A stretch of DNA of 64,000 nucleotides, taken from positions 302,050 through 366,049 of the forward strand of contig CAVXML010000006.1 of NCBI GenBank assembly GCA_963763015.1, in the 5' to 3' direction. Made by a program: the position numbers and the translations under genes. How positions within the stretch are numbered: position 1 is the first letter of the stretch; the number at the start of each line of letters is the position of its first letter. This DNA is from an uncultured Actinomycetota bacterium. GTDB lineage: Bacteria > Actinomycetota > Actinomycetes > Actinomycetales > Dermatophilaceae. Positions 1 to 52,867 of this stretch are shown here, in pieces. Under the pieces are notes generated by a model. It did no database searches. It saw nothing but the letters and a program-made list of their open reading frames with translations, and had not been told where the DNA came from.

Positions 1-1012
1 CGTGGCAGAACCGGACGGCGTCGACGGCGCCCAGCGATGCGGCATCCGCGATGACGAAGTAGGTGCCCTGCGGAACCGACACCTCCATTCCGGCCGTCCG
101 CAGGCCGGAGACGAGCCGGTCGCGCTTCGCCCGGAGCGAGCCGGCCAGGTCCACGTACACGGCATCCGGCAGTGCAAGGCCCACCGCGACGGCCGGTTGG
201 AAGGGGCCCGACCCGACATAGGTGAGGAACTGCTTCACCGCCCGGACCGCCGCGACGGCCTCGGCCGGGCCGGACACCCAGCCCACCTTCCACCCCGTCG
301 TCGAGAAGGTCTTGCCGGCGGAGGAGATCGTCAGCGTCCGGTCCCACATCCCGGGAAGCGAGGCGACGGGCACGTGCTGGGCACCGTCGAAGGTCAGGTG
401 CTCGTAGACCTCGTCGGTCACCACCCAGGCGTCGTGCTCGCGAGCGAGCGCGCACACGAGCTCGAGCTCAGCGGGGGTGAAGACCTTGCCGGTGGGGTTG
501 TGCGGCGTGTTGAGCAGCACGACCCTGGTGCGCTCGGAGAACGCGGCCCGCAGCGACGCCTCGTCGACGGCGAAGTCGGGGAAGCGCAGCACCGAGGTCC
601 GCCGCACCCCGCCGGCCAGGGCGATCGTCGCGGCGTAGGAGTCGTAGTACGGCTCGAAGGTCAGCACCTCGTCACCCGGCTGCACGAGCGCCAGGACGGT
701 CGCCGCGATCGCCTCGGTGGCGCCCACCGTCACCAGCACCTGCGTGAGCGGGTCGACCTGCAGCCCGTAGAAGCGCTCCTGGTGCTGCGCCACCGCGTGC
801 AGCAGCTCGGGCACGCCTGCGCCCGGCGGGTACTGGTTGCGCCCTCCGCGGATCGCCGCGACGGCCGCCTCGAGAACCTCGGGCGGTCCGTCGGTGTCCG
901 GGAAACCCTGCCCGAGGTTGATCGCTGCGTGTTCGGTCGCCAGCGCCGACATCGTCGCGAAGATCGTCGTCCCGAAGGACTCGAGCGCCGGGTGGCCGGG
1001 GGAGCGGGTCAT
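1..1012 (-). CDS. PLP-dependent class I/II aminotransferase (DapC/YbdL-like), 3' end truncated by the window edge
   Basis: Hand translation of the minus strand from ATG 1012 gives MTRSPGHPALESFGTTIFATMSALATEHAAINLGQGFPD, plus LNTPHNPTGK and DEVYEH motifs. Not in the ORF track because no stop lies inside the window. TACCCT box 6 nt before the ATG. Confidence 0.88.
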   Translation of the reverse strand, partial: MTRSPGHPALESFGTTIFATMSALATEHAAINLGQGFPDTDGPPEVLEAAVAAIRGGRNQYPPGAGVPELLHAVAQHQERFYGLQVDPLTQVLVTVGATEAIAATVLALVQPGDEVLTFEPYYDSYAATIALAGGVRRTSVLRFPDFAVDEASLRAAFSERTRVVLLNTPHNPTGKVFTPAELELVCALAREHDAWVVTDEVYEHLTFDGAQHVPVASLPGMWDRTLTISSAGKTFSTTGWKVGWVSGPAEAVAAVRAVKQFLTYVGSGPFQPAVAVGLALPDAVYVDLAGSLRAKRDRLVSGLRTAGMEVSVPQGTYFVIADAASLGAVDAVRFCH

Positions 1013-1126
1013 GGCCGCAGGGTATGCCGGGCCGGTGCCCAGCGGGTCGGATGCCGTGCCGTCAGCCTCGCCGCCCACTCGGCGAGCCCGGCGAGGGGGC
1101 GGGCGGCGGCAAGCGCAGGAGACACC

Positions 1127-1161
1127 GGGAGGGGCCGAGCACTCGGTGCCCGGCCCCTCCC
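1127..1161 (-). terminator. GC-rich hairpin downstream of the nuclease gene
   Basis: 11-bp perfect arms GGGAGGGGCCG (1127-1137) and CGGCCCCTCCC (1151-1161) with further internal pairing, about 18 nt after the stop at 1179. Confidence 0.55.
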
Positions 1162-1178
1162 TTCTGCGGTGTCGCGCC

Positions 1179-4100
1179 TCAGCCCACCGTGAGGGTGAAC
1201 GAGCTCGTCGTCCCGGTGCTGGGCACCGAGATGTCGAACCGCTGCACGCCACTGAGCCCAGCCGGCACCGTGAACGTCACGGTGGCCTTGCCGATCTCGT
1301 CCACCGTCGGCGTGAAGGCCCGGTCGACGGTCGCCGTGGCGAGCGTCTGCCCTCCATGGGAGACGACGACCGTGCCGGCGGCGGGCTCGGTGCGGCTGAA
1401 GTCGAGCGACGACAGGTTCACCGTCACCGACTCGCCCGGTGCATACGTGCCGTCACCCTGGACGTCCACGCCCACCGCCCGCTGCTTCACGTCCGGCGTG
1501 ATCGTGCCGAACTCGGCGAAGTAGTCGACCATCGACTCGAGGTCGATCTTGCCGCTGTCCGCCTTGTTCTTGCCCGATGCCAGTGTGAGGAAGTTGTCTC
1601 CACCGGCGGCGAGGAACGAGTTGGCGCCGACCGAGTAGGTCGTCGTGGGGAGGACAGGCTGCCCGCCCAACAGGATCTCGGTGATGCGCGATCCCACCGG
1701 CGCAGTGGGGTCGTACGTGTAGGTGAGCTCCTTGTTCACTCCGAGCTTGAGGAACGGCCGGGACGCGCCTGACGGCTGCCACTGCTCCTCGAGCACCTGC
1801 TTGACCTGCGCTCCGGTGAGTTCGAGCGTGACCAGGGTGTTCGCGAACGGCTGGACGTCGGCCGCCTCGCGGTAGGTGACCTCACCGCCGGCCAGGTCGG
1901 CGCGGAGGCCGCCCGGGTTCATGAACGCGATGTCCACGTCGCGGGTGCCGTCCTGCTCGAGCGACCACAGCTGCACGTCGGCCACCAGGTTGCCGAGCGT
2001 CGACTCCCCGCCACGGTTCTCGGGGAACGACGTCGCACCGACCGGGTTGGATGCCACGGCTCGACCGAAGTCGCCCGTCGCCTCACCGAGCACGACGCTG
2101 CCGAGCTCGTTGGCCACCGCCACCGCGTCGGCGACGATCGGCGCGACAGTCGGGTCGTCCGGGTAGATGGCGGCAGCGCCGTTCATGAGCGGGAGGATCT
2201 CGTTCTTCATGGTGAACTTCTTCGTCACCCGGTCGACCGTGATGTCCATCCGGGAGAACCGCTCGCCGTACTGACCGCTCGAGATCACCGGCCGGCCGTC
2301 GATCACGTGGTTGTAGGCGAGGTGGGTGTGACCGGAGACGATGGCATCGACGTTGTCGTTGGCGCCGTTGACGATCTTGCCGAACCGGGTGGACTCGTCA
2401 GTGGCTGTCTCGGGCTTCGTGTCGACAGCACCTTCGTGGACGAGCAGCACGACGATGTCGGCCTCGCCGTTCGCCTTCTTGCCGTCCGAGAGCTGGTTCG
2501 CCACCCGGTTCGCGGCCTCGACCGGCGGCCCCACCTCGATGTCCTTGATGCCGTCCGGGCTCACCAGCGAGGGGAGCTCGTCGGTGACCGCACCGACGAA
2601 GCCGATGGTGACCCCGTCGAAGGTCTCGGTGTAGTACTCGGGCAGGGCCGGGATGGTGGTGCCCTTCTCGTAGACGTTCGCGCCGAGGTAGTCCCACAGC
2701 GCCAACGGCATGACCCGGTCGGTGAGGTCCGTGAAGCCCTGGTCGAACTCGTGGTTGCCCACCGCGCTGACGTCCAGCCCTGCCGCGTTGAGCGCCTCGA
2801 TGGTCGGCACGTCCTGCTGGATGAAGGACGTGAACGTCGACGCCCCGATCATGTCCCCGGCAGCCGCGAACACGGTGTTCGGGTTGGCTGCGCGGATCTG
2901 CTTGACCGCGCTGGACAGGGCGGCGATGCCTCCGGATGGTGCCGACTGCTCGATGCGCCCGTGGAAGTCGTTGACGGTGACGAGGTCGATGTCCACGGTC
3001 GCCGGCACCTGCTCCGCACTGACGCCGACGAGGATCGGGTCGTGGTCGCTCGAGCGGAACGGCGTGCCTGGCTCGGCCGCGGGACCCCAGTACTCGCGAC
3101 CACTCCACTCGGGCGAGTTGATCGACCAGACCGCTGCCTTGGTCACCCGGTCGTTCGCCGCCGGGGACGCGATCACGTGGTCCAGGGAGCCCAGCTCGCC
3201 GTCGAACGTGTACGTGTACTGGCTGCTGCCCCGGCTGGGCAGCAGGTCGCTCCATCCTGCGTCGGTGAAGACCTTGATCGGGTCCTCCTTGGCGTAGGAG
3301 TTGAAGTCACCGACCAGGTAGACGGCGTTCTTCCGGCCGTCGGAGATGCTGTTCGCGAACGCGAGCAGCGACTGGGCCTGCTCCACGCGCTCCCCGTTGT
3401 ACGGGTCCTGGTTGGGCTCCGGCGTCGTGTCGGCGGGGTTGTTGCCCTTGGACTTGAAGTGGTTGCCGACCACGGTGACGAACTGCTTGCCGAACTTGAA
3501 CGTCTGGGCGATCGGCTCGCGGGCGATGTCCCACACGCTCTCGTCGATCACGGTCAGCGCCTCACCCGAGGGCTTGACGACGGCCGGCTTGTAGATGATT
3601 GCGTTCATGATGACGTCGGTGATGGCCGGGTCGTGCAGAGCGGCAGGCGTGCGCACGTAGTCCCAGACCGTCGACCCGGCGGCCTTGTTGAGGGCCTTCA
3701 CGAGCGTGGCGAGCGCCTCGTCGGGCGCCTCGCCGAGCTTGACCGAGTTCTCGATCTCCTGGAGGGCCACGACGTCCGCGTCCAGGCCGTTGATCGCCGT
3801 GACGATCTTCGACTCCTGGATGGCGAACTCCTCCGCCGTCTCCGCGCCGCGGGCGTCGGGGTTGTCCTCCGACAGAGTGGTGAAGTAGTTGAGCACGTTG
3901 AACGCTGCGACGGTGAGGTCGCCGCCCACCGCCGGTGCCGAGGCAGGTCGCGGGTTGCCGACGACCACCTTGTCGGCGTTGACGGTCGTGAACGTGGGCT
4001 TGAGGTCCGCCGTGCTTGCGTCGTTGACCGGTGTCGGGGGCTGGAGCCGCCAGTTGTTGAAGTCGTAGCTCAGCAGCGAGCCGCCGGCCGGGAAGTTCAC

Positions 4101-41896: not shown

Positions 41897-43816
41897 TCAG
41901 GGGCGGTCGCTCGTGAGCCAGAGCACCGCGTACGGCGGGAGCCACACGTTCCCGTCGTCGCCCCACGGCAGGGCGATTCCGGTGATCTCGTCGACGGCGT
42001 CGGCCACCCCGAGCTCGCGCACGCGCCCGCCCGGCCACGACCGCCACTGCGGGCTCACGTTGTAGACGCCCACGAACCGCCCCACGGGGTGCTCTCGCAC
42101 CGTCACCAGGACTCCGGGGTCGTCCACCGGCCCGATCCGGCTCTCGACCGACCCGTGCAGGTGGGGGAGGCGGGTCCGTGCACGCACGAGCTCGACGAGG
42201 TCGGTGAAGACCCGGCCGGGCACCGTCGCACGGTCGTTCCGTTGCTCGGCGCGCACCCAGTCAAGCCGCGGCCGGTGGGTCCAGCGGTTGTCGTCCTCGT
42301 GCCCGGGCTCGGACGCCCAGCCCGGGTCGTTGGGCTGGCCGAGCTCGTCACCGCTCCAGATGACGGGGATGCCGCCCCACCCGATCACGACCGCGTGGGC
42401 CAGCCGCAGCGCGGATGCCGCCCGCTCCACCTCGGCCGGACTGCTCGCCGACTCCAGCCCGACCAGCGATGCCGCGGTCCCGCTCGTGCGCCGGTCCTCG
42501 GTCTCGGGGTTGTGCTGGAACACCAGCCCGCGTGCCGGGGACCCTGGGAACCTCCCGGCGTACCAGTCGGCGAGGAAGCTCCGGTGCGCGTGACCGCCGA
42601 GGCCCACGGCGGCGGCATCCTCGTCCATGATCGCCCAGCCGATGTCGTCGTGGCAGCGCAGGTAGGTCAGCCAGGTCGCCGACGGGGGCTTCGGGGGCAG
42701 CGAGTTGAGGGCGTGCTCCGCGAGCCGCACGTCGCGCGAGGCGAGCATCGACCACACGTGGACCATGACGCTGTTGTGGTAGGCGAGGTCGCTGACCTTG
42801 CCCGAGTACGAGCCGCTGCCGAGGTAGTCGAGCAGCTTGGTGGGCGCCACGATGGCCTCGGCGAGGAAGGCCACCGCCGGGCACGCGATGCGGGTCACCG
42901 CCCGGAGCACCTGGGTGATGGCGTGCACCTCGGGCTGGCCCTGGCAGTCGGTGCCGAGCCGTTTCCACATGAAGGCGAGGGCGTCGAGGCGCAGCACGTC
43001 GACGCCCCGGTTGGCGAGGTCGAGGATGATCGACGCGTACTCCCTCAGCACCGCCGGGTTGGCCCAGTTGACGTCCCACTGGAACTCGTTGAACGTCGTC
43101 CACACCCAGCCCTGGAGCTCCTCCTCCCACGTGAAGTTCCCGGGGGCGAAGTCAGGGAAGACCTCGGGCAGCGTGCGCTCGAAGGCGTCGGGGCCGGTGC
43201 GGTCGGGGAACACGTGGAAGTACTCGCGGTAAGCCGGGTCGCCGGCTCGCGCGCGCTGGGCCCACTCGTGCTCGCGCGCGACGTGGTTGAGCACCAGGTC
43301 GAGGACGAGGCTCATCCCGGCGTCGTGGAGCCGTGCCGCGAGCGCTTCGAGGTCGTCCAGGGTGCCGAGGTCGGAACGCACCGCGCGGTAGTCGGCCACG
43401 GCGTAGCCACCGTCGTTGTCACCCTCGCGAGGGCGCAGCAGCGGCATGAGGTGGAGGTAGGTGACGCCGAGCTCGCGTAGGTACGGGAGGTGGCCGGCGA
43501 CCCCGCGCAGGGTCCCCGCGAACCGCTCCGTGTAGGCCGCATACCCCACCATCTCGGGGTCCTGGAGCCAGTCGGGGCGCAGCATCCGCTCCAGGTCGCG
43601 GACGTGGAGCCGGTCCGAGCGAGCGGCGTACGCGGCGCTGGCCAGGCCCACGAGGTCCGCGGCCAGCATCGGTGCCTGCTGGGCCCCGTACAGCGGGGTG
43701 AGCCCCGAGAGCAGGTCGGGCCACCAGCGCTCGACCCGCGCCCGGAGCATCACCTGCCGCTCCTCGCTCATGCCGGGTGGCACGGGGGCCGTGGGCGGGG
43801 GGACCGGGGCTCTCAC
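41897..43816 (-). CDS. GH13 amylosucrase-like glycoside hydrolase
   Basis: NDGGYAV, DLVLNH, LRLDALAF, AEAIV, RCHDDIG. Start GTG 43816 (GAGAAT box upstream) or ATG 43771. Confidence 0.88.
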   Translation of the reverse strand: MRAPVPPPTAPVPPGMSEERQVMLRARVERWWPDLLSGLTPLYGAQQAPMLAADLVGLASAAYAARSDRLHVRDLERMLRPDWLQDPEMVGYAAYTERFAGTLRGVAGHLPYLRELGVTYLHLMPLLRPREGDNDGGYAVADYRAVRSDLGTLDDLEALAARLHDAGMSLVLDLVLNHVAREHEWAQRARAGDPAYREYFHVFPDRTGPDAFERTLPEVFPDFAPGNFTWEEELQGWVWTTFNEFQWDVNWANPAVLREYASIILDLANRGVDVLRLDALAFMWKRLGTDCQGQPEVHAITQVLRAVTRIACPAVAFLAEAIVAPTKLLDYLGSGSYSGKVSDLAYHNSVMVHVWSMLASRDVRLAEHALNSLPPKPPSATWLTYLRCHDDIGWAIMDEDAAAVGLGGHAHRSFLADWYAGRFPGSPARGLVFQHNPETEDRRTSGTAASLVGLESASSPAEVERAASALRLAHAVVIGWGGIPVIWSGDELGQPNDPGWASEPGHEDDNRWTHRPRLDWVRAEQRNDRATVPGRVFTDLVELVRARTRLPHLHGSVESRIGPVDDPGVLVTVREHPVGRFVGVYNVSPQWRSWPGGRVRELGVADAVDEITGIALPWGDDGNVWLPPYAVLWLTSDRP

Positions 43817-43938
43817 GGGCGGCATTCTCGCCGATCTGCGGAAGCGTTTCCACCGCGGACGTCGGGAGGCCGCCGCCGGGGGCAGAGGCCGAGCGGGCAC
43901 GGGCACCTGCGACGCTGCGCCCCGGCCGCGCGCGAGGT

Positions 43939-45924
<1,986 letters not shown>

Positions 45925-45972
45925 CGGTCCACCGTATGCCGGGGCTCGCCGCGGAGTGGCCGGGCCGGCGGG

Positions 45973-46884
45973 TCAGTCGTCCAGGGCCTTCGCGAGCGCG
46001 ATGCTGAAGGACACCTCGTGGGCGTTCCCGTCGTCGAGCGCCCAGACGGCCTCGATGCCGCAGCGGACGATCGTCCACAGCCGCGCGACGTCCGCGTCGA
46101 TGCCGGCCGCGTCGCAGACCAGCTCCACGCGCCGCCGGACCGACCACCGGAACGCCGCCCCGGTGCCCAGCTCGTCGGTACGGTTGCGCAGCACGGCGTG
46201 CAGCTCGAACCCGGGATGGCCCCCGATCGGCTGGGGGTCGATGGCCAGCCAGGGCTCGCGGACGCCGGCGAGGACGTTCTCGTAGTGCAGGTCGCCATGA
46301 AGCAGGGCCTCGTCGCCTGGCAGCTGGCGCACGAGCTCACGGTGCAGCCCGACCGCCCGGGAGACGAACCGGCGCGGCAGCGAGTCGCGCCGCTGCAGCT
46401 CGTCGATCCACCCCTGCGACCACGGCCCCAGCCGGCGCAAGGGCGGTGGTGCCGGTCGGTGCAGCCGGGCCAGCAGCGACCCGATGACCGTGCATGCCTC
46501 CTCCACGTCGACCCGGCTGAGGTCGCGGGTCGCGTCGAGGCGTTCGAGGAGCAGTGCCCCGCGGGACGGCTCCGCCGCGACGAGCCGCACGGCTCCGTTG
46601 CCCGCCCAGTGCCGGAGGGCCAGTGGCTCGCCGTCGGTGTCCTCGCTCGGCCTGACCAGCTTCAGGACCAGTGGCTGGCCGTCCCGCGTGACCGGGGCGA
46701 CGACCGCGGTCCAGCCGGTGCGCAGCTCGCCGTCGGCCTCGAGGTCCCACCTCGAGAACTGCTCCTCGAGCAGGCGTTGTGCCCGCGCCGCCCAGGCCGC
46801 ACCCGAGGGACCACCCTCGGCGGGGAGGCGGGAGATCCACTCCAGCCACTCCAGCGGAATGACGGGAACGCCCGGTGCACTCAC
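45973..46884 (-). CDS. APH(6)/hydroxyurea-kinase-like aminoglycoside phosphotransferase family protein
   Basis: LVLKL, LLERL, LLHGDLHYENVL, WLAIDP; GTGA overlap with the upstream gene. Confidence 0.82.
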   Translation of the reverse strand: MSAPGVPVIPLEWLEWISRLPAEGGPSGAAWAARAQRLLEEQFSRWDLEADGELRTGWTAVVAPVTRDGQPLVLKLVRPSEDTDGEPLALRHWAGNGAVRLVAAEPSRGALLLERLDATRDLSRVDVEEACTVIGSLLARLHRPAPPPLRRLGPWSQGWIDELQRRDSLPRRFVSRAVGLHRELVRQLPGDEALLHGDLHYENVLAGVREPWLAIDPQPIGGHPGFELHAVLRNRTDELGTGAAFRWSVRRRVELVCDAAGIDADVARLWTIVRCGIEAVWALDDGNAHEVSFSIALAKALDD

Positions 46885-47842
46885 TCCAGGCCCGGGAAGG
46901 GCAGCAGGTCCAGGCCCCACCGGTGCGCCTCGACCTCGACGGTCCCGAGCCACCGGGTCACGGCAGCCATCCCGAGGACGCCGGCCGCGGTGACGACCGG
47001 TTCGAGGTGCGGCCCGTACCCGGCACGCAGCGCCTCGTGAACCTCGCGGGCCAGCCGGGCGGCATCGGCCGGGGTGCGGACCTCGAAGGGGAGCGGATGG
47101 CCGAGGTCCTGCTCCGGGTGGGCGCCACCGGCCACCTGGTCGGCGAGCAGGCCGCGCAGCGCCTGGAGGCTGGTGTCCGACCGGGCGCGCTGGCTCCCCG
47201 TGGACCGGGCACTCACGACCTCGAGGAGCCAGATCGCGGCGGCCGTCTCCCGGGCGAGCTCGGCCACCGGCGCGGCATCCACCGGATCCAGGGGAACGCG
47301 GGGTGGCCGTCCGGCGAGCAGGGCCGCGGCGGCATACCGCTGGGCGTGCAGTGCCGCCACGGGGGCCCGCAGGTCCCTGCCTGACACCCGCGAGGTCTCC
47401 GGCCGACGCGGCTGCCGCGCCCTCGTCCGCCGCCAACGCCGCGACCGCCCGAGCGGTGGGCGCCACCGAGGGGCTCGGGGCTGCCGGACCCGGTCGGTGT
47501 CGCCGTCCTGGTGGCCGGCGCCGCGTCGAGGGCGGACAACGGCACCTGCTGGCGCGCGAGCGTGGTGCGCAGCACCGTGTGCTGACGGCGGTGGAGCGCG
47601 GCGAGGTCGCCACCGAGGTCGCCCCCGAGCGCAGCGGCCTCGTCGGCCAGGGCGGCGGTGTCACGGGTGAGGGCCACGAGCTCCGCCTCTGCGGGGACGG
47701 GCGTTCTCGTCGGCACGAGCGGAAGCTTCGGGGCGCCGTCCTCGAGCCGGATGCCGCACGAGGCGGACGGCAGCGCTGCAGCGCCCAGCGCGGTGGCGAG
47801 AAGAGCGCGACGGGGCACCGGCCCACCTGCTCCCTGCGCCAT
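46881..47842 (-). pseudogene. DUF4439/ferritin-like putative lipoprotein interrupted by two apparent +1 frameshifts
   Basis: The coding signal passes through three frames: MAQG...ASCGIRLED...TGSGSP | PSPSVAPTARAVAALAADEGAAAASAGDLAGV | GRDLRAPVAALHAQRY...PFPGLE. Span is 962 nt (3n+2). Confidence 0.6.
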
Positions 47843-47943
47843 GCGCGCATCCTCCCACGGCGCCCCGAGGGCTTCGGGAACTGTCCTACAGTGGTGGTCG
47901 GCGGCCACCGGCCGACGGTCAAACTGCAGAGAGGAAGGGCCCC

Positions 47944-48462
47944 ATGACCACCGCGGAACGCATCCGGCCCGACCTCGAGCAGGCACTCGTCGGCAGCGGC
48001 CTCGTGCTCGAGGACGTCACGGTGACCCCGGCGGGGAGGCGCCGCGTGGTGCGGGTCCTCATCGACCGGGACCTCGGTGGCCGCGAGACCGTCACCGAGC
48101 GCACCGAGCCGCTCTCGCTCGACGAGGTGGCCGACGCCACCCGGCTCGTGGGGGAGGCCCTCGACCGTTCCGACGCGCTGGGGGAGCAGGCCTACACCCT
48201 GGAGGTGTCGTCCCCGGGCGTCGGCCGACCCCTCACCGAGCCGCGCCACTTCCAACGCAACATCGGCCGCCTGGTCACGGCTCGGCACGACGGTGCCGAG
48301 ACCACCGGTCGGGTGACCGCTGCCGACGCGGCGCAGGTGACCCTGGAGGTGCCGGCCAGCCGGAGCAGTCCGGCCCGCACCCAGACCATCCCGTATGCCG
48401 GGATCGAGCGCGCGGTCGTGCAGGTCGAGTTCGCCCGCCCCGACGAGACTCCGGAGAGCTGA
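47944..48462 (+). CDS. rimP: Ribosome maturation factor RimP
   Basis: [40 protein letters not shown]. Confidence 0.95.
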
Positions 48463-48463
48463 C

Positions 48464-49615
48464 ATGGACATCGACCTGGCGGCCCTGCGAGCACTCGAGC
48501 GGGAGCGCGGCATCTCGCTGGACGTGCTCATCCCCGCCATCGAGCAGGCCCTGCTCCTGGCGTACCAGCGCACTGAGGGCCATGACCGCCACGCCCGCGC
48601 CGAGCTCGACCGCAAGACCGGCCACGTCGTCGTGTGGGCACGCGAGGAGCTGGAGGCCCCCGTCGTGGACGAGGTGGACGAGGACGGCAACCCGGTTCGT
48701 GCGCGGCGTGAGCTCGGCCCGGAGTTCGACGACACCCCCACCGGCTTCGGTCGCGTCGCGGCGGCGACGGCCCGCCAGGTGATCGTCCAGCGGCTGCGCG
48801 ACATCGAGGACGAGGCGATCCTCGGGGACTTCAAGGGCCGCGAGGGTGACATCGTCGCCGGCATCATCCAGCAGAGCCCCGACCCCCGGCACGTCACGGT
48901 CGACTTCGGCAGCGTCGAGGGGATCCTGCCGCTGGCCGAGCAGGTTCCCGGGGAGTCCTACGTGCACGGCCAGCGCCTGCGCTGCTTCGTGGTCTCGGTG
49001 AAGCGCGGGCCCCGCGGTCCCCAGATCGGGCTGTCTCGCACCCATCCCAACCTCGTGCGCAAGCTGTTCGCCCTCGAGGTCCCCGAGATCGCCGACGGCA
49101 GCGTCGAGATCGCCGCCCTGGCGCGTGAGGCCGGCCACCGCACGAAGATCGCGGTGCACTCGGCCGTTCCCGGCCTGAACGCCAAGGGCGCCTGCATCGG
49201 CCCGATGGGTGCCCGGGTGCGCGCCGTCATGAGCGAGCTGCACGGCGAGAAGATCGACATCGTCGACTGGTCCGAGGACCCGGCGACCTTCGTCGCCGCC
49301 GCCCTCTCGCCCGCTCGGGTGTCCTCCGTCGAGATCGTGGACCGCCAGCTGCGCTCCGCCCGGGTCGTCGTGCCCGACTACCAGCTCTCGCTCGCCATCG
49401 GCCGCGAGGGCCAGAACGCCCGGCTGGCGGCCAAGCTCACCGGGTGGCGGATCGACATCCGACCCGACACCGTCGGGCCGGCGCCGGCAGGGCGGCATCC
49501 GACAGGGCGGGATTCGGCAGGGCGGGATTCGGCAGGGCGAGGTCCGGCAGGGCGGGGTCCGGCAGGGCGGGATCCGGCGGGGCCGCACACGGGTGACGCG
49601 CCCGACCCCGGGTAG
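48464..49615 (+). CDS. nusA: Transcription factor NusA with a C-terminal pentapeptide repeat tail
   Basis: [14 protein letters not shown]1 domain, [47 protein letters not shown]. Confidence 0.97.
49484..49588 (+). repeat. 15-bp in-frame tandem repeat (6 full units plus 1 degenerate)
   Basis: Consensus CCGGCAGGGCGGGAT at 49484, 49499, 49514, 49529, 49544, 49559, 49574, encoding [35 protein letters not shown]. Confidence 0.92.
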
Positions 49616-49625
49616 CGGTAGACTG

Positions 49626-49961
49626 GTGCAGACCGACCGGACTGGACTCCGGCCCGGACAGCCGGTGCGCACCTGCATCGGGTGTCGTGGGGCGGATAGC
49701 CGGTCGGCACTCCTGCGAGTGGTCCTCGGGCCCGGTGCGGGCGGCATCCCTGTCGTCGTCCCGGACCCCGAGCGCCGTCGTCCGGGACGTGGCGCCTGGC
49801 TGCACCCGGTCGTCTCGTGCCTTGACCTGGCCGTCCGCCGTCGGGCGTTCGGGCGCGCGCTGCGCAGCAGCACGCCACCGGACCACACCGCCATCGCCGA
49901 CTGGGTCAGGGCACACACGCAGGACCAACCGTCCGAGAGCAAGAACCGAAAGCGGGTTTGA
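49626..49961 (+). CDS. ylxR: YlxR/RnpM family RNA-binding protein
   Basis: PVRTCIGCR, LLRVV, PGRGAWLHP...C...AVRRRAFGRALR; lies between nusA and infB. Start approximate. Confidence 0.9.
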   Translation: MQTDRTGLRPGQPVRTCIGCRGADSRSALLRVVLGPGAGGIPVVVPDPERRRPGRGAWLHPVVSCLDLAVRRRAFGRALRSSTPPDHTAIADWVRAHTQDQPSESKNRKRV

Positions 49962-49966
49962 CGCTG

Positions 49967-50012
49967 ATGAGCACCCGATGAGTACTCAGCGATGAGCACC
50001 CCCCAGCTGTAA
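49967..50012 (+). promoter_or_regulatory. Chain of three ATGA-coupled micro-uORFs upstream of infB (MSTR*, MSTQR*, MSTPQL*)
   Basis: ATG AGC ACC CGA TGA (49967-49981); ATG AGT ACT CAG CGA TGA (49978-49995); ATG AGC ACC CCC CAG CTG TAA (49992-50012). The sequence is directly visible; translation is inferred. Confidence 0.7.
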
Positions 50013-50053
50013 CGACGGTCCGCGCGCAGAGCCCGGACCTGGACAGGAGAAAC

Positions 50054-52867
50054 GTGTCTAAAGTCCGTGTGAGCGCACTTGCCAAGGAGCTCGGAGTGAC
50101 CAGCAAGGTCCTCCTCGAGCGCCTCAACGGCATGGGCGAGTACGTCAAGAGCGCCAGCTCGACGATCGAGCCCCCTGTGGTGCGGCGCTACCGGGAGAAG
50201 TTCCCGGACGACGCGCCCAAGGCCGCCGCCCCCGCAGCGGCGAAGAAGGCCGCTCCGGCGGCCCCTGCCCCGGCAGCCCCCTCTGCCCCAGCCGCGCGCG
50301 ACGCCGCGCCGGCGGCGCCGTCGTCGTCGGCTCCGGCGGCCGCGGCGCCCGCCCAGGCGCCCTCGCGGCCCGCCGAGGTAGCCCCCGCGGCATCCGCACC
50401 GTCGGCCCCGGCGGCCGCCGCGCCGGCGCCCGCAGCGCCCGCACCCGCAGCGCCCGCGCCCGCTCCAGCAGCACCGGCGCCGTCCGCACCGGTGGCACCG
50501 GCCGCCCGTGACGCGGGTGGCCAGGGTGCGCCCCGCCCGGCCCCCCGGCCGGCCAGCGCCCCGCGCCCCGGCAACAACCCGTTCGCCCCGAGCCAGGGGA
50601 TGGGCCGCACCCGCGAGCCCTCGCCCCGTCCGGGCAACAACCCGTTCGCCCCGAGCCAGGGGATGCCGCGGCCGCAGAGCCGTCCGGGCGCCCGTCCCGG
50701 TGCGGCCGGTGCCGGTGCGGCCGGTCCGCGCCCCAGCGGCTCCCGTCCGAGCCCCGGCATGATGCCCGACCGCAGCGCGGTCGCCCGTCCCGGTGAGCGT
50801 CCCGCCCGCGGCGGCGCGCGCCCCGGTGGTCCCGGTGCCGGTCGTCCCGGTGCCGGCGGCGGCGCCGGTGGCTTCGGTGGTCGCCCCGGCGGACCCGGCG
50901 GCTTCCGCGGTGGTCCCGGTGGCCGTGGCGGCACCCAGGGTGCCTTCGGCCGCGGTGGCGGTCGTCCCGGCCGCGCCCGCAAGTCCAAGCGCGCCAAGCG
51001 CCTCGAGTTCGAGGAGATGCAGGCACCGTCGATCGGTGGCGTCAGCGTCCCCCGCGGTGACGGCACCACCGTCATCCAGATCCGCCAGGGCGCGAGCCTG
51101 TCCGACTTCGCCGACAAGATCGACGCGAACCCGGGCGCCCTCGTCACCGTGCTGTTCCACCTCGGTGAGATGGCCACGGCGACGCAGAGCCTCGACGAGG
51201 ACACCTTCCGGCTCCTCGGTGGCGAGCTCGGCTACGACATCCGCATGGTCTCGCCCGAGGAGGAGGAGCGCGAGCTCTTCGACTCGTTCAACATCGACCT
51301 CGAGATCGGGGTCGACACCGAGGACGAGGACGACCTCGAGGCCCGTCCGCCGGTCGTGACCGTCATGGGTCACGTCGACCACGGAAAGACGCGCCTGCTC
51401 GACGCGATCCGCAGCGCCGAGGTCGCCGCCGGCGAGGCCGGTGGCATCACCCAGCACATCGGTGCCTACCAGATCCACAAGGAGCACGAGGGCGTCGACC
51501 GTCCCATCACCTTCATCGACACCCCTGGTCACGAGGCGTTCACCGCCATGCGTGCCCGTGGTGCCAAGGTGACCGACATCGCCATCCTCGTGGTGGCCGC
51601 GGACGACGGCGTCATGCCGCAGACCATCGAGGCGCTCAACCACGCCCAGGCGGCCGACGTCCCGATCGTCGTCGCGGTCAACAAGATCGACGTCGAGGGT
51701 GCCAACCCCGCGAAGATCCGCCAGCAGCTCACCGAGTACAACCTCGTCGCCGAGGAGTACGGCGGCGAGACGATGTTCGTCGACGTCTCCGCGAAGCAGG
51801 GGCAGAACATCGACCAGCTGCTCGAGGCCGTGCTCCTCACGGCCGACGCGGCGCTCGACCTGCGGGCCAACCCCGAGCGCGACGCCCGCGGCATCGCGAT
51901 CGAGGCCAACCTCGACAAGGGTCGCGGCGCCACGGCGACCGTGCTCATCCAGTCGGGCACGCTGCGCGTCGGTGACGCCATCGTGGCGGGCTCCTCGCAC
52001 GGCCGCGTCCGGGCGATGCTCGACGAGCACGGCAACCAGGTCCCGGAGGCACTCCCGTCGCGTCCGGTCCAGGTGCTCGGCCTCTCCACGGTCCCGCGGG
52101 CCGGCGACACGTTCGTCGTCGCCCCCGACGACCGCACGGCGCGCCAGATCGCCGAGAAGCGCGAGGCGGCCGACCGTCAGGCGAGCCTGGCCAAGGCCCG
52201 CAAGCGCATCTCGCTCGAGGACCTCAACGAGGCCCTTGCGGCGGGCAAGGTCGACACCCTCAACCTCATCCTCAAGGGTGACGTGTCGGGTTCGGTCGAG
52301 GCGCTCGAGGACGCCCTGCTCCAGATCGACGTGGGCGAGGAGGTCGACCTGCGCATCATCGACCGCGGCGTCGGCGCGATCACGCTGAACAACATCAACC
52401 TCGCGATGGCGTCCAACGCCATCATCATCGGCTTCAACGTGCGGGCCGAGGGCCAGAACGCCGAGGTGGCCGAGCGTGAGGGCGTCGAGATCCGCTACTA
52501 CTCGGTCATCTACCAGGCGATCGAGGAGATCGAGCAGGCGCTCAAGGGCATGCTCAAGCCGGAGTTCGAGGAGGTCGAGCTCGGCACGGCAGAGATCCGC
52601 GAGATCTTCCGGAGCAGCAAGTTCGGCAACATCGCCGGCTCGATCGTGCGCAGTGGCGAGATCAAGCGCGGCACCCGGGCGCGCATCACCCGGAACGGTG
52701 TCGTCGTCGCCGAGAACGTCGAGATCGCCGGGCTGCGCCGGTTCAAGGACGACGTCACCGAGGTCCGCGAGGGCTTCGAGTGCGGCATCAACCTCGGGTC
52801 GTTCAACGACCTCCAGCTCGAGGACCTCATCAGCACGTACGAGATGCGCGAGAAGCCCCGGGCCTGA
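50054..52867 (+). CDS. infB: Translation initiation factor IF-2
   Basis: [14 protein letters not shown], Pro/Ala/Gly-rich linker, [23 protein letters not shown]; SD AGGAG. Confidence 0.98.

Follow-up and report, generated by a model that had tools for sequence, protein, structure and literature searches.

The Leader between ylxR and infB

The window studied here, a stretch of 64,000 nucleotides from an uncultured bacterium of the family Dermatophilaceae, carries an operon with the order rimP-nusA-ylxR-infB-rbfA-truB (assigned by Pfam), and the subject of this paper is the short leader that separates ylxR from infB, the gene of initiation factor 2 (IF2). The stop codon of ylxR (TGA, 49959-61) is followed, 5 nt downstream, by the first of three minimal open reading frames (micro-ORFs). 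Both internal junctions of this chain are ATGA sequences (49978-81 and 49992-95), in which the stop codon of one micro-ORF overlaps the start codon of the next, and the three micro-ORFs occupy all three frames. The last of them stops 4 nt from a hairpin, which has two inner pairs (G50024-C50032 and C50025-G50031) in addition to its arms, and 41 nt from the GTG with which infB begins (Table 1).

The leader had been pointed out in an initial annotation, and when the sequence from 49500 to 50400 was read again, its coordinates for the micro-ORFs, the hairpin and the Shine-Dalgarno (SD) sequence of infB proved exact, the ATGA overlaps and the occupancy of three frames were confirmed, and Pfam agreed with the identities that it had given to the two flanking genes (YlxR for the first; IF2_N, GTP_EFTU and IF-2 for the second).

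According to Tandem Repeats Finder, an 11-nt unit, GATGAGCACCC, is present in three copies at 49966-50001, and the decamer GATGAGYACY occurs three times in the leader, to be compared with 0.31 occurrences expected across the whole window. Neither strand of the 64 kb contains a second chain of three or more coupled micro-ORFs. When the region 48000-51000 was scanned with the covariance models of Rfam 15 at E values up to 10, only two chance matches were obtained, both inside infB; a scan for sigma-70-like promoters scored none at the leader, and a simple scan of 49700-50150 returned no terminator-like site. Two candidate elements were discarded. One was a hammerhead, prompted by CUGAUGAG, for which there is no Rfam match and whose motif reads AAUGAG or GUGAAG in other lineages, and the other was a TTGACG/AGTACT promoter feeding micro-ORF 3, which is unsupported by the scan and unconserved.

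Table 1. Features of the ylxR-infB region, in coordinates of the window
Feature	Position	Strand	Basis or remark
ylxR (YlxR/RnpM family, DUF448)	49593..49961	+	Pfam PF04296, E 2.5e-20
SD-like motif GAAAGCGGGT, weak	49948..49957	+	9 nt 5' of micro-ORF 1 ATG, within ylxR 3' end
Micro-ORF 1, ATG AGC ACC CGA TGA (MSTR*)	49967..49981	+	sequence
Micro-ORF 2, ATG AGT ACT CAG CGA TGA (MSTQR*)	49978..49995	+	start overlaps stop 1 (ATGA)
Micro-ORF 3, ATG AGC ACC CCC CAG CTG TAA (MSTPQL*)	49992..50012	+	start overlaps stop 2 (ATGA)
Conserved hairpin GGUCCG 50017-22 / CGGACC 50034-39	50017..50039	+	5-nt loop; 3' end 6 nt before GGAG
infB Shine-Dalgarno AGGAG	50045..50049	+	inside near-invariant ACAGGAGA
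infB (IF2, 937 aa), GTG start at 50054	50054..52867	+	Pfam IF2_N, GTP_EFTU, EF-G_D2, IF-2

Conservation of the Micro-ORF Chain

Relatives of the locus were collected by a scan with the IF2 protein, one genome per species, which gave 80 loci and assigned the window to a Phycicoccus-like member of the Dermatophilaceae, and the ylxR stop and the infB start were located in each of the loci. A homologue search based on YlxR reached close relatives only, and two Mycobacterium loci were retrieved with an IF2 N-terminus that served solely as a probe. The chain and alignment statistics refer to 63 loci, the alignment spans positions -120 to +3 of infB, and the chain of a locus is defined as the longest run of ORFs that are joined by overlaps of -4 or -1.

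The initial annotation had proposed that the ATGA overlaps be looked for in relatives, and they are kept: a chain of at least three micro-ORFs (3-14 codons) is present in 57 of the 63 loci and one of at least two in 62 of them, and a chain of three or more appears in 2.9% of dinucleotide shuffles. When chains are restricted to ATG starts, 52 with at least three members are found in 1.17 Mb of related loci, both strands included, and all of these lie in the infB leader. Since 62 of the 63 loci contain -4 or -1 junctions, the leader has the overlaps that characterize termination-reinitiation (TeRe) coupling.

Chains are found in Dermatophilaceae and other Micrococcales, in Kineococcus, Streptomyces, Nocardioidaceae and Bifidobacterium, and in Mycobacterium tuberculosis. 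The GATGAG type of the window recurs in Kineococcus, in Streptomyces (MSTR/MSTR/MSTPMN) and in a metagenome-assembled genome of the Nocardioidaceae. In the Microbacteriaceae the same architecture is built from another sequence, ATG GAC AAC TAATG AGC GGC TCG AAATGA GAC CCG ..., which encodes the peptides MDN, MSGSK and MRPVRN; the members of the Brevibacterium chain are longer, and Bifidobacterium has two members, MVAR and MRRGKLADRE. A Met-Ser-Thr start, which the initial annotation had taken for a common trait of the micro-ORFs, is therefore not what is conserved: the peptides differ from lineage to lineage, and the geometry of starts and stops alone is kept. Neither a conserved peptide nor a run of regulatory codons, by which a leader peptide that senses amino acids or antibiotics (trpL, ermCL or the mycobacterial polycysteine short ORFs) would be recognized, was found in the chain peptides.

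The same conclusion can be read from the individual columns of the alignment. The mean column identity is 42%, and the columns that are conserved to at least 90% among the 63 sequences are the three ATG(A) sites, one G of the purine motif upstream of them, the GG and CC ends of the hairpin, the sequence ACAGGAG and the GTG start codon. This level is reached by ATGAG at the start of micro-ORF 2 and by ATGA at the start of micro-ORF 3, and in the GTG of infB the TG is invariant and the first G at least 90% conserved.

The main spacings from start to start are 11, 14, 17 and 35 nt, each of which equals 2 modulo 3. Where a start codon has been lost, another takes its place: loci L053 and L061 (MATSTR) lack the first ATG and have instead one that lies 6 nt upstream in the same frame, and a lost ATG has become GTG in L060 and in M. 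tuberculosis. One Brevibacterium has lost 1 nt, and a new GTGA junction spans the deletion; in an Arthrobacter (L033) an insertion of about 70 nt is spanned by an ORF of 28 codons, the end of which is once more at the hairpin.

The position of the ylxR stop codon, on the other hand, is free to vary. Among 60 loci it overlaps a start codon of the chain in 29, precedes it by a gap of at most 8 nt in 19 (the window included), and lies further away in 12. From the fact that the chain is kept wherever the ylxR stop falls, it follows that the chain is an independent module and no by-product of the ylxR end. Taken together, the sequence comparisons argue for selection on the ATGA-coupled micro-ORFs as a genuine feature, with an architecture that is conserved across the class Actinomycetes.

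Two variants of the array were noted in passing. Locus L009 (labelled Rothia sp. ARF10) has four units at 1432-1490, encoding MSTR, MSNR, MSTQ and MSSPQH; with its extra 11-nt unit it shows that duplication of units can still lengthen the array. Some Microbacteriaceae have a TAATG or TGATG at the last stop, the ATG of which opens a fourth coupled ORF that runs through the hairpin; this ORF is out of frame with infB in L071, L077 and L048, and in frame with it in L046 and L065, where it would yield an N-terminally extended IF2.

The Hairpin and the infB Ribosome-Binding Site

A hairpin lies between the last stop codon and the SD sequence of infB in all 63 loci, with a mean z of -1.9 against shuffles. 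At its site a perfect helix of 6 bp is present in 59 of the loci and is made from 30 different arm pairs, among them GGUCCG/CGGACC, GGUCUG/CAGACC, GGCUUG/CAAGCC, GGUUCU/AGAACC, GGCCUC/GAGGCC and GAGGCG/CGCCUC. A covariance model (R1) that was built from 14 sequences detects the module of hairpin and SD sequence in 59 of the 63 loci, and every match lies at the leader site on the plus strand. In the alignment made with the model, 91.2% of the helix cells are paired compared with 79.3% after shuffling, and double-sided changes number 53 compared with 19.7 (in both cases none of 500 shuffles reached the observed value), and the slid controls are all paired to 54% or less; since this alignment is fitted to the structure, its pairing figures lean toward it. 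In an unfitted MAFFT alignment 80.9% of the helix cells are paired, compared with 76.8% after shuffling.

The hairpin is held in a narrow position relative to both the chain and infB. The last stop lies 0-5 nt 5' of the 5' arm, or just inside this arm in a few lineages. Between this stop and the infB start there are 37-59 nt in all but four of the 63 loci, namely L035 (29 nt), L033 (36 nt) and two that were scored with GTG and TTG starts disregarded. On the other side of the hairpin, 3-11 nt separate the 3' arm from GGAG in most loci.

Within the upper part of the hairpin there is often a stretch complementary to the SD region of infB (an anti-SD stretch). Complements of at least 5 nt occur in 52% of the loci, where the null expectation is 12%, and complements of at least 6 nt in 30%, where it is 3%. 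The stretch covaries with the flank of the SD sequence, as in CCUGU/ACAGG, CUCCUUC/GAAGGAG, CCUGUC/GACAGG and UCCUGUUC/GAACAGGA. Stretches of 5-8 nt are carried by L012, L016, L021, L022, L024, L025, L027, L039, L046, L048 and others, and L056, L062, L064 and L065 are further carriers; the stretch is absent from the window and from its nearest relatives, L001, L002 and L068 among them. Because the linker is just 0-3 nt, anti-SD pairing would, on geometric grounds, be incompatible with the full hairpin.

In the window itself, the minimum free energy (MFE) fold pairs the 3' arm (CGGAC, from 50034 on) and UGGACA with codons 1-7 of infB (UGUCUA...GUCCG), through position 50073; the 3' arm proper pairs with codons 5-6, and the SD sequence and the GTG are enclosed. 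In relatives infB has the codons AAG GUC CGC G, to which the 5' arm, GGUCCGCG, is similar. To judge by eye from the sequences, the pairing between the 3' arm and infB codons seems to be lineage-specific, unconserved in Microbacteriaceae or Mycobacterium. The initial annotation had suggested another pairing, in which CCT at 50038-40 binds the AGG of the SD sequence; this would leave a loop of only about 4 nt, which is sterically implausible, and it was rejected on geometry.

When a ribosome on the last stop codon is simulated by masking the nucleotides that it would cover, the predicted accessibility of the infB SD sequence rises from 0.40 to 0.72 in Microbacteriaceae and falls in several Dermatophilaceae (from 0.39 to 0.24 in L056, from 0.51 to 0.38 in L024 and from 0.87 to 0.48 in L042). 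The element thus has the parts of a switch, and the folding predictions point in opposite directions in different lineages.

Ribosome Entry and the Pattern of Shine-Dalgarno Sequences

The strength of an SD sequence was expressed as the energy of its duplex with the 3' end of 16S rRNA, which we take to be CACCUCCUUUCU, and was determined for 62 loci, where random positions give -3.0 kcal/mol. In the window the energies are -5.9 kcal/mol for micro-ORF 1, -1.9 for micro-ORF 2, -2.2 for micro-ORF 3 and -9.6 for infB, and the medians over the loci are -5.85 kcal/mol for the first micro-ORF, -2.6 for the middle ones, -2.2 for the last and -9.7 for infB. The statement in the initial annotation that the micro-ORFs have no obvious SD sequence accordingly holds for micro-ORFs 2 and 3 and fails for micro-ORF 1, which has GAAAGCGGGT in front of it. 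This SD-like motif is kept at the nucleotide level even in loci where the end of ylxR is far upstream. The infB site is at or below -6 kcal/mol in 62 of 62 loci.

The middle and last micro-ORFs pair more weakly with 16S rRNA than random positions do, and in this respect they have no ribosome-binding site (RBS) of their own, as is the case for downstream ORFs in TeRe. From this it follows that micro-ORFs 2 and 3 would be translatable by reinitiation only. The pattern as a whole is the one expected when ribosomes enter at the first ORF and reinitiate thereafter.

The M. tuberculosis Leader and Published In Vivo Data

In M. tuberculosis (L081) the ylxR stop is the TGA of ACATGAGC, and the chain reads ATG AGC ACA CCG TGA, then GTG AAG TCC CGA TGA, then ATG ACA ATG CGT CAT AGC TAA. 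The chain is followed after 4 nt by the hairpin GAGGCG/CGCCUC and then by GGACAGGAG and the GTG of infB. The first ATG of the chain lies exactly 89 nt before this GTG. In the supplementary tables of D'Halluin et al. (10.1101/2022.06.01.494293) a transcription start site (TSS) is placed at 3147962 and the infB start at 3147873, which gives a leader of 89 nt. It follows from the two distances that the TSS coincides with the A of the ATG of micro-ORF 1, and that this micro-ORF is leaderless. Shell et al. (PMC4633059) give a further TSS at 3148151, and in M. marinum an infB-associated TSS is reported to be induced 11.5-fold in hypoxia.

The same tables of D'Halluin et al. contain a peak in ribosome profiling (Ribo-seq) at the infB leader, 3147936-3148017, with a coverage of 34,367, and neighbouring rows have 260-3,300 (10.1101/2022.06.01.494293). 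They also list, as a conditional terminator linked to TSS 3147962, the Rho-dependent 3' end 3147713 (160 nt inside infB), and sequencing of 3' ends (Term-seq) places further Rho-dependent 3' ends within ylxR at 3148012 and 3148225, which together with 3147713 flank the element (10.1101/2022.06.01.494293). There is no Term-seq 3' end just past the hairpin in M. tuberculosis, the nearest being 3148012 and 3147713. The components of a leader attenuator, that is, terminator and antiterminator hairpins with a U-tract terminator, were found neither in the window nor in the M. tuberculosis Term-seq data. In the text of 10.1101/2022.06.01.494293 infB is absent, and the supplements of PMC11133741 have nothing at this locus. 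RNA sequencing runs that match the Streptomyces locus L076 do so through low-share contigs.

Other Features of the Window

The genes around the leader are rich in short repeats. The C-terminal tail of NusA consists of pentapeptide repeats that derive from a 15-nt tandem repeat (49484-49583, 6.7 copies, 88% match), which stops just short of the ylxR start at 49593. Within infB, the region 50306-50919 is composed of numerous short tandem repeats (periods of 6-30 nt) that encode the Ala/Pro/Gly-rich linker of IF2, and because the linker is built in this way, tblastn matches in relatives begin near residue 300. Upstream of rimP two very long ORFs overlap on opposite strands, at 43777-47040 (+) and 45973-48897 (-); the first of these (1087 aa) has no Pfam match, and at least one of the two is probably a shadow ORF of the kind that arises at high GC content.

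A Probable Ribosome Relay in Front of infB

From the anatomy of the leader, its class-wide conservation, the covariation of the hairpin, the SD pattern, and the ribosome density and TSS in M. tuberculosis, we infer a relay of termination and reinitiation that would deliver ribosomes to the hairpin-guarded RBS of infB and so couple infB initiation and the protection of its mRNA to upstream translation. This is the reading toward which we lean, if only slightly. That the micro-ORFs are translated is held with greater confidence than that they function as a relay, and the direction of their effect on infB with less.

To see how the relay would work, consider a ribosome that has just finished ylxR a few nucleotides upstream and enters at micro-ORF 1. 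It could also enter by way of the weak SD sequence within the 3' end of ylxR or, in M. tuberculosis, at the leaderless AUG at the transcription start. The ribosome would make a peptide of four codons, terminate at UGA and restart on the overlapping AUG of the AUGA junction, and this would be repeated once. The final termination would then take place 0-5 nt before the hairpin, or just inside its 5' arm in a few lineages. The hairpin spans roughly positions -37 to -15 of the infB RBS, and a ribosome on the last stop, with the stop codon in its A site, would by its usual footprint size cover the 5' arm and thereby open or remodel the hairpin. In this way the relay would leave a subunit beside the strong SD sequence of infB, and the ribosomes engaged in it would at the same time keep the spacer of about 90 nt shielded from Rho and RNases. 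The most likely net effect is a positive coupling of infB initiation and infB mRNA integrity to the flux of upstream translation.

Several observations speak against such a relay. With a strong SD sequence of its own, infB has no obvious need for coupling. In the window the folding model gives an SD accessibility of 0.75 when the last-stop ribosome is left out and 0.76 when it is masked in, and the masking results for the Dermatophilaceae given above have the sign opposite to the one that the relay would call for. RNAalifold finds no structure in the plain MAFFT alignments A1 and A2, because the 3' arm is out of register in them. The overlap rule arises automatically when the 11-nt unit is duplicated, because the unit contains ATGA, and the commonest spacing is therefore no independent evidence that the frames are selected. 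The Ribo-seq peak of M. tuberculosis also spans the 3' end of ylxR, which makes it supportive and short of decisive, and D'Halluin et al. did not call the micro-ORFs, because their cut-off was at least 5 residues plus an SD sequence or a leaderless start. A search of sequencing runs with the window, finally, matched metagenome DNA contigs only.

Alternative Explanations

The idea behind the initial annotation was that the leader is a sensor of initiation that gives feedback control of infB, and a version of it in which the feedback is made negative we regard as unlikely. For a ribosome to be passed on at an AUGA junction, IF2 and fMet-tRNA would here have to rebind while the subunit is still in place, so that more IF2 activity brings steeply more ribosomes to the last stop and high IF2 lowers IF2 synthesis: the ribosome on the 5' arm would free the apical anti-SD stretch (in the lineage of the window, the 3' arm), which would pair with the SD sequence or start of infB and shut the site. 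If arriving ribosomes open the hairpin instead, low IF2 lowers IF2, and the idea as first put thus gives positive feedback without homeostasis; the sensor is therefore homeostatic only if ribosome arrival closes the site, and such closure would be permitted by the anti-SD stretches that half of the lineages carry. The excess of these stretches and their covariation with the SD flank, the mutual exclusion of anti-SD pairing and full hairpin that their short linker implies, the fall in accessibility on masking in L056, L024 and L042, and the MFE fold of the window with its 3' arm and UGGACA on infB codons 1-7 are all consistent with closure. The M. tuberculosis leader, moreover, begins with a leaderless AUG, and according to a review (PMC9031893) IF2 and fMet-tRNA enhance leaderless and 70S-type initiation, which also responds to IF3; this keeps the idea of a sensor alive. 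Against it stand the absence of the anti-SD stretch from the window and its nearest relatives, the opposite effects that are predicted for different lineages, and the lack of conservation of the infB codon pairing in Microbacteriaceae and Mycobacterium. Carried to its end, the argument leads to an 'initiation counter', a protein-free sensor, read by ribosomes, of the capacity for reinitiation (IF2-GTP with fMet-tRNA versus RF2 and recycling), which would serve the homeostatic control of IF2 across the Actinomycetes, M. tuberculosis included. In this model the probabilities of being passed on at two to four AUGA junctions multiply to set the arrival at the hairpin, which may switch the infB RBS and, through Rho, the infB mRNA. 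We consider the counter a doubtful proposition.

Two further explanations remain. The leader could be an insulator against polarity, in which stops in three frames unload the ylxR ribosomes, ribosomes kept on the spacer shield the gap from Rho and RNase, infB starts independently on its strong SD sequence, and the hairpin merely shields its RBS from the upstream context. Stops in all three frames follow from -4 overlaps, the ylxR stop shifts in its position over the chain from one species to another, the infB SD sequence is strong in every locus and in the window is predicted to be open in all states, and the Rho-dependent sites 3148012 and 3147713 of M. tuberculosis flank the element, with less Rho termination reported where ORFs overlap by 1 or 4 nt (10.1101/2022.06.01.494293). 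Stops alone, however, need no conserved ATGs, and a simple cover needs no last stop fixed at the foot of the hairpin; nor does an insulator explain why lost start codons are replaced or why an SD-like site precedes micro-ORF 1, and we find it quite improbable. Very improbable, in our judgement, is that the GATGAG units are untranslated sites, bound as DNA or RNA by a regulator of an internal infB promoter or by an RNA-binding protein such as YlxR, with the ORFs as a by-product. Such sites would fit a tandem array whose 11-nt unit is near one helical turn, the internal transcription starts that exist in mycobacteria, and the retention of synonymous positions in close relatives, where the chain is identical to the window to 0.87-0.96 and the body of ylxR to 0.73-0.77 (L068, L001, L002 and L007; the comparison is made at fixed offset and is valid only for loci of equal hairpin length). 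Across lineages, however, just ATG(A) is kept and no recognition site of 6-8 nt, no sigma-70-like promoter was scored in the window, and ribosome footprints lie over the region in M. tuberculosis. For a binding protein, furthermore, spacings of 2 modulo 3, replacement starts, bridging ORFs and a stop at the hairpin foot would have no meaning.

Relation to Known Systems

TeRe coupling at NUGA and URRUG overlaps is known from actinobacterial operons and upstream ORFs (uORFs), through the M. tuberculosis survey 10.1101/2022.06.01.494293 and the review PMC12548453. The infB leader shares with it the 4-nt (ATGA) and 1-nt (TAATG/TGATG) overlaps, the downstream ORFs without SD sequence, and the proposal that a short upstream ORF can 'deliver' a ribosome to the next gene. 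It differs in having two to five consecutive minimal ORFs, in that the last of these stops about 41-48 nt upstream of infB, at a hairpin and without gene overlap, and in that the arrangement is kept class-wide at a single locus. Leaders with leaderless short ORFs are also known in mycobacteria, from the polycysteine attenuators of 10.1101/834739 and from Shell et al. (PMC4633059). The M. tuberculosis infB leader resembles them in its AUG at a mapped TSS and in its polycistronic arrangement, and unlike the polycysteine leaders it has no run of regulatory codons and has several chained ORFs of 4-6 codons. Leaderless entry into the infB leader is documented in M. tuberculosis only.

Other parallels are more distant. 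In the eukaryotic GCN4/ATF4 system, serial short uORFs precede the gene, reinitiation depends on the factor that delivers reloaded initiator tRNA, and the output reports initiation capacity. The likeness to the infB leader lies in the series of short uORFs; GCN4/ATF4 uses scanning distance and the eIF2 ternary complex, whereas the infB leader has no scanning interval, because its starts overlap its stops, and the gene behind it encodes the factor itself. In E. coli, infC, the gene of IF3, is under autogenous control through its AUU start codon, against which IF3 is proven to discriminate, without uORFs or hairpin. The two cases are alike in that the start region of an initiation-factor gene could read the activity of the initiation machinery, and infB keeps a GTG behind AUG micro-ORFs. 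In E. coli, too, infB is co-transcribed with nusA, in a neighbourhood (rimP-nusA-...-infB-rbfA-truB) like that of the window. Unlike the window, E. coli has no ylxR, and the 24 nt between nusA and infB leave no room for micro-ORFs or a hairpin.

No prior description of an infB micro-ORF leader was found in a full-text literature search, the coverage of which is poor for subscription journals, so that absence is no proof. The search returned general treatments of NUGA overlaps, of ribosome 'delivery' by short ORFs and of leaderless small ORFs, and a paper on WblC/WhiB7 in which infB is mentioned in a context unrelated to the leader. Overlap coupling itself is already known; what appears to be new is a series of minimal ORFs that ends at a hairpin and is kept class-wide ahead of IF2.

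Implications

The control of IF2 levels is poorly understood outside E. coli, where it is mostly transcriptional and exerted through NusA. The element described here is short, precisely defined and class-wide, and it stands before an essential gene in, among other organisms, M. tuberculosis, Streptomyces and bifidobacteria. Termination-reinitiation, for which single gene junctions are the usual object of study, can be examined here as a natural series, and the leader is also a concrete target for mutation with which one can ask whether the synthesis of a translation factor is tuned by translation itself. It also illustrates that ORFs as small as 3-6 codons, too short for the cut-offs of published small-ORF surveys, can rank among the most conserved features of an operon. 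If the 'initiation counter' were true, the leader would be a bacterial counterpart to logic of the GCN4 type.

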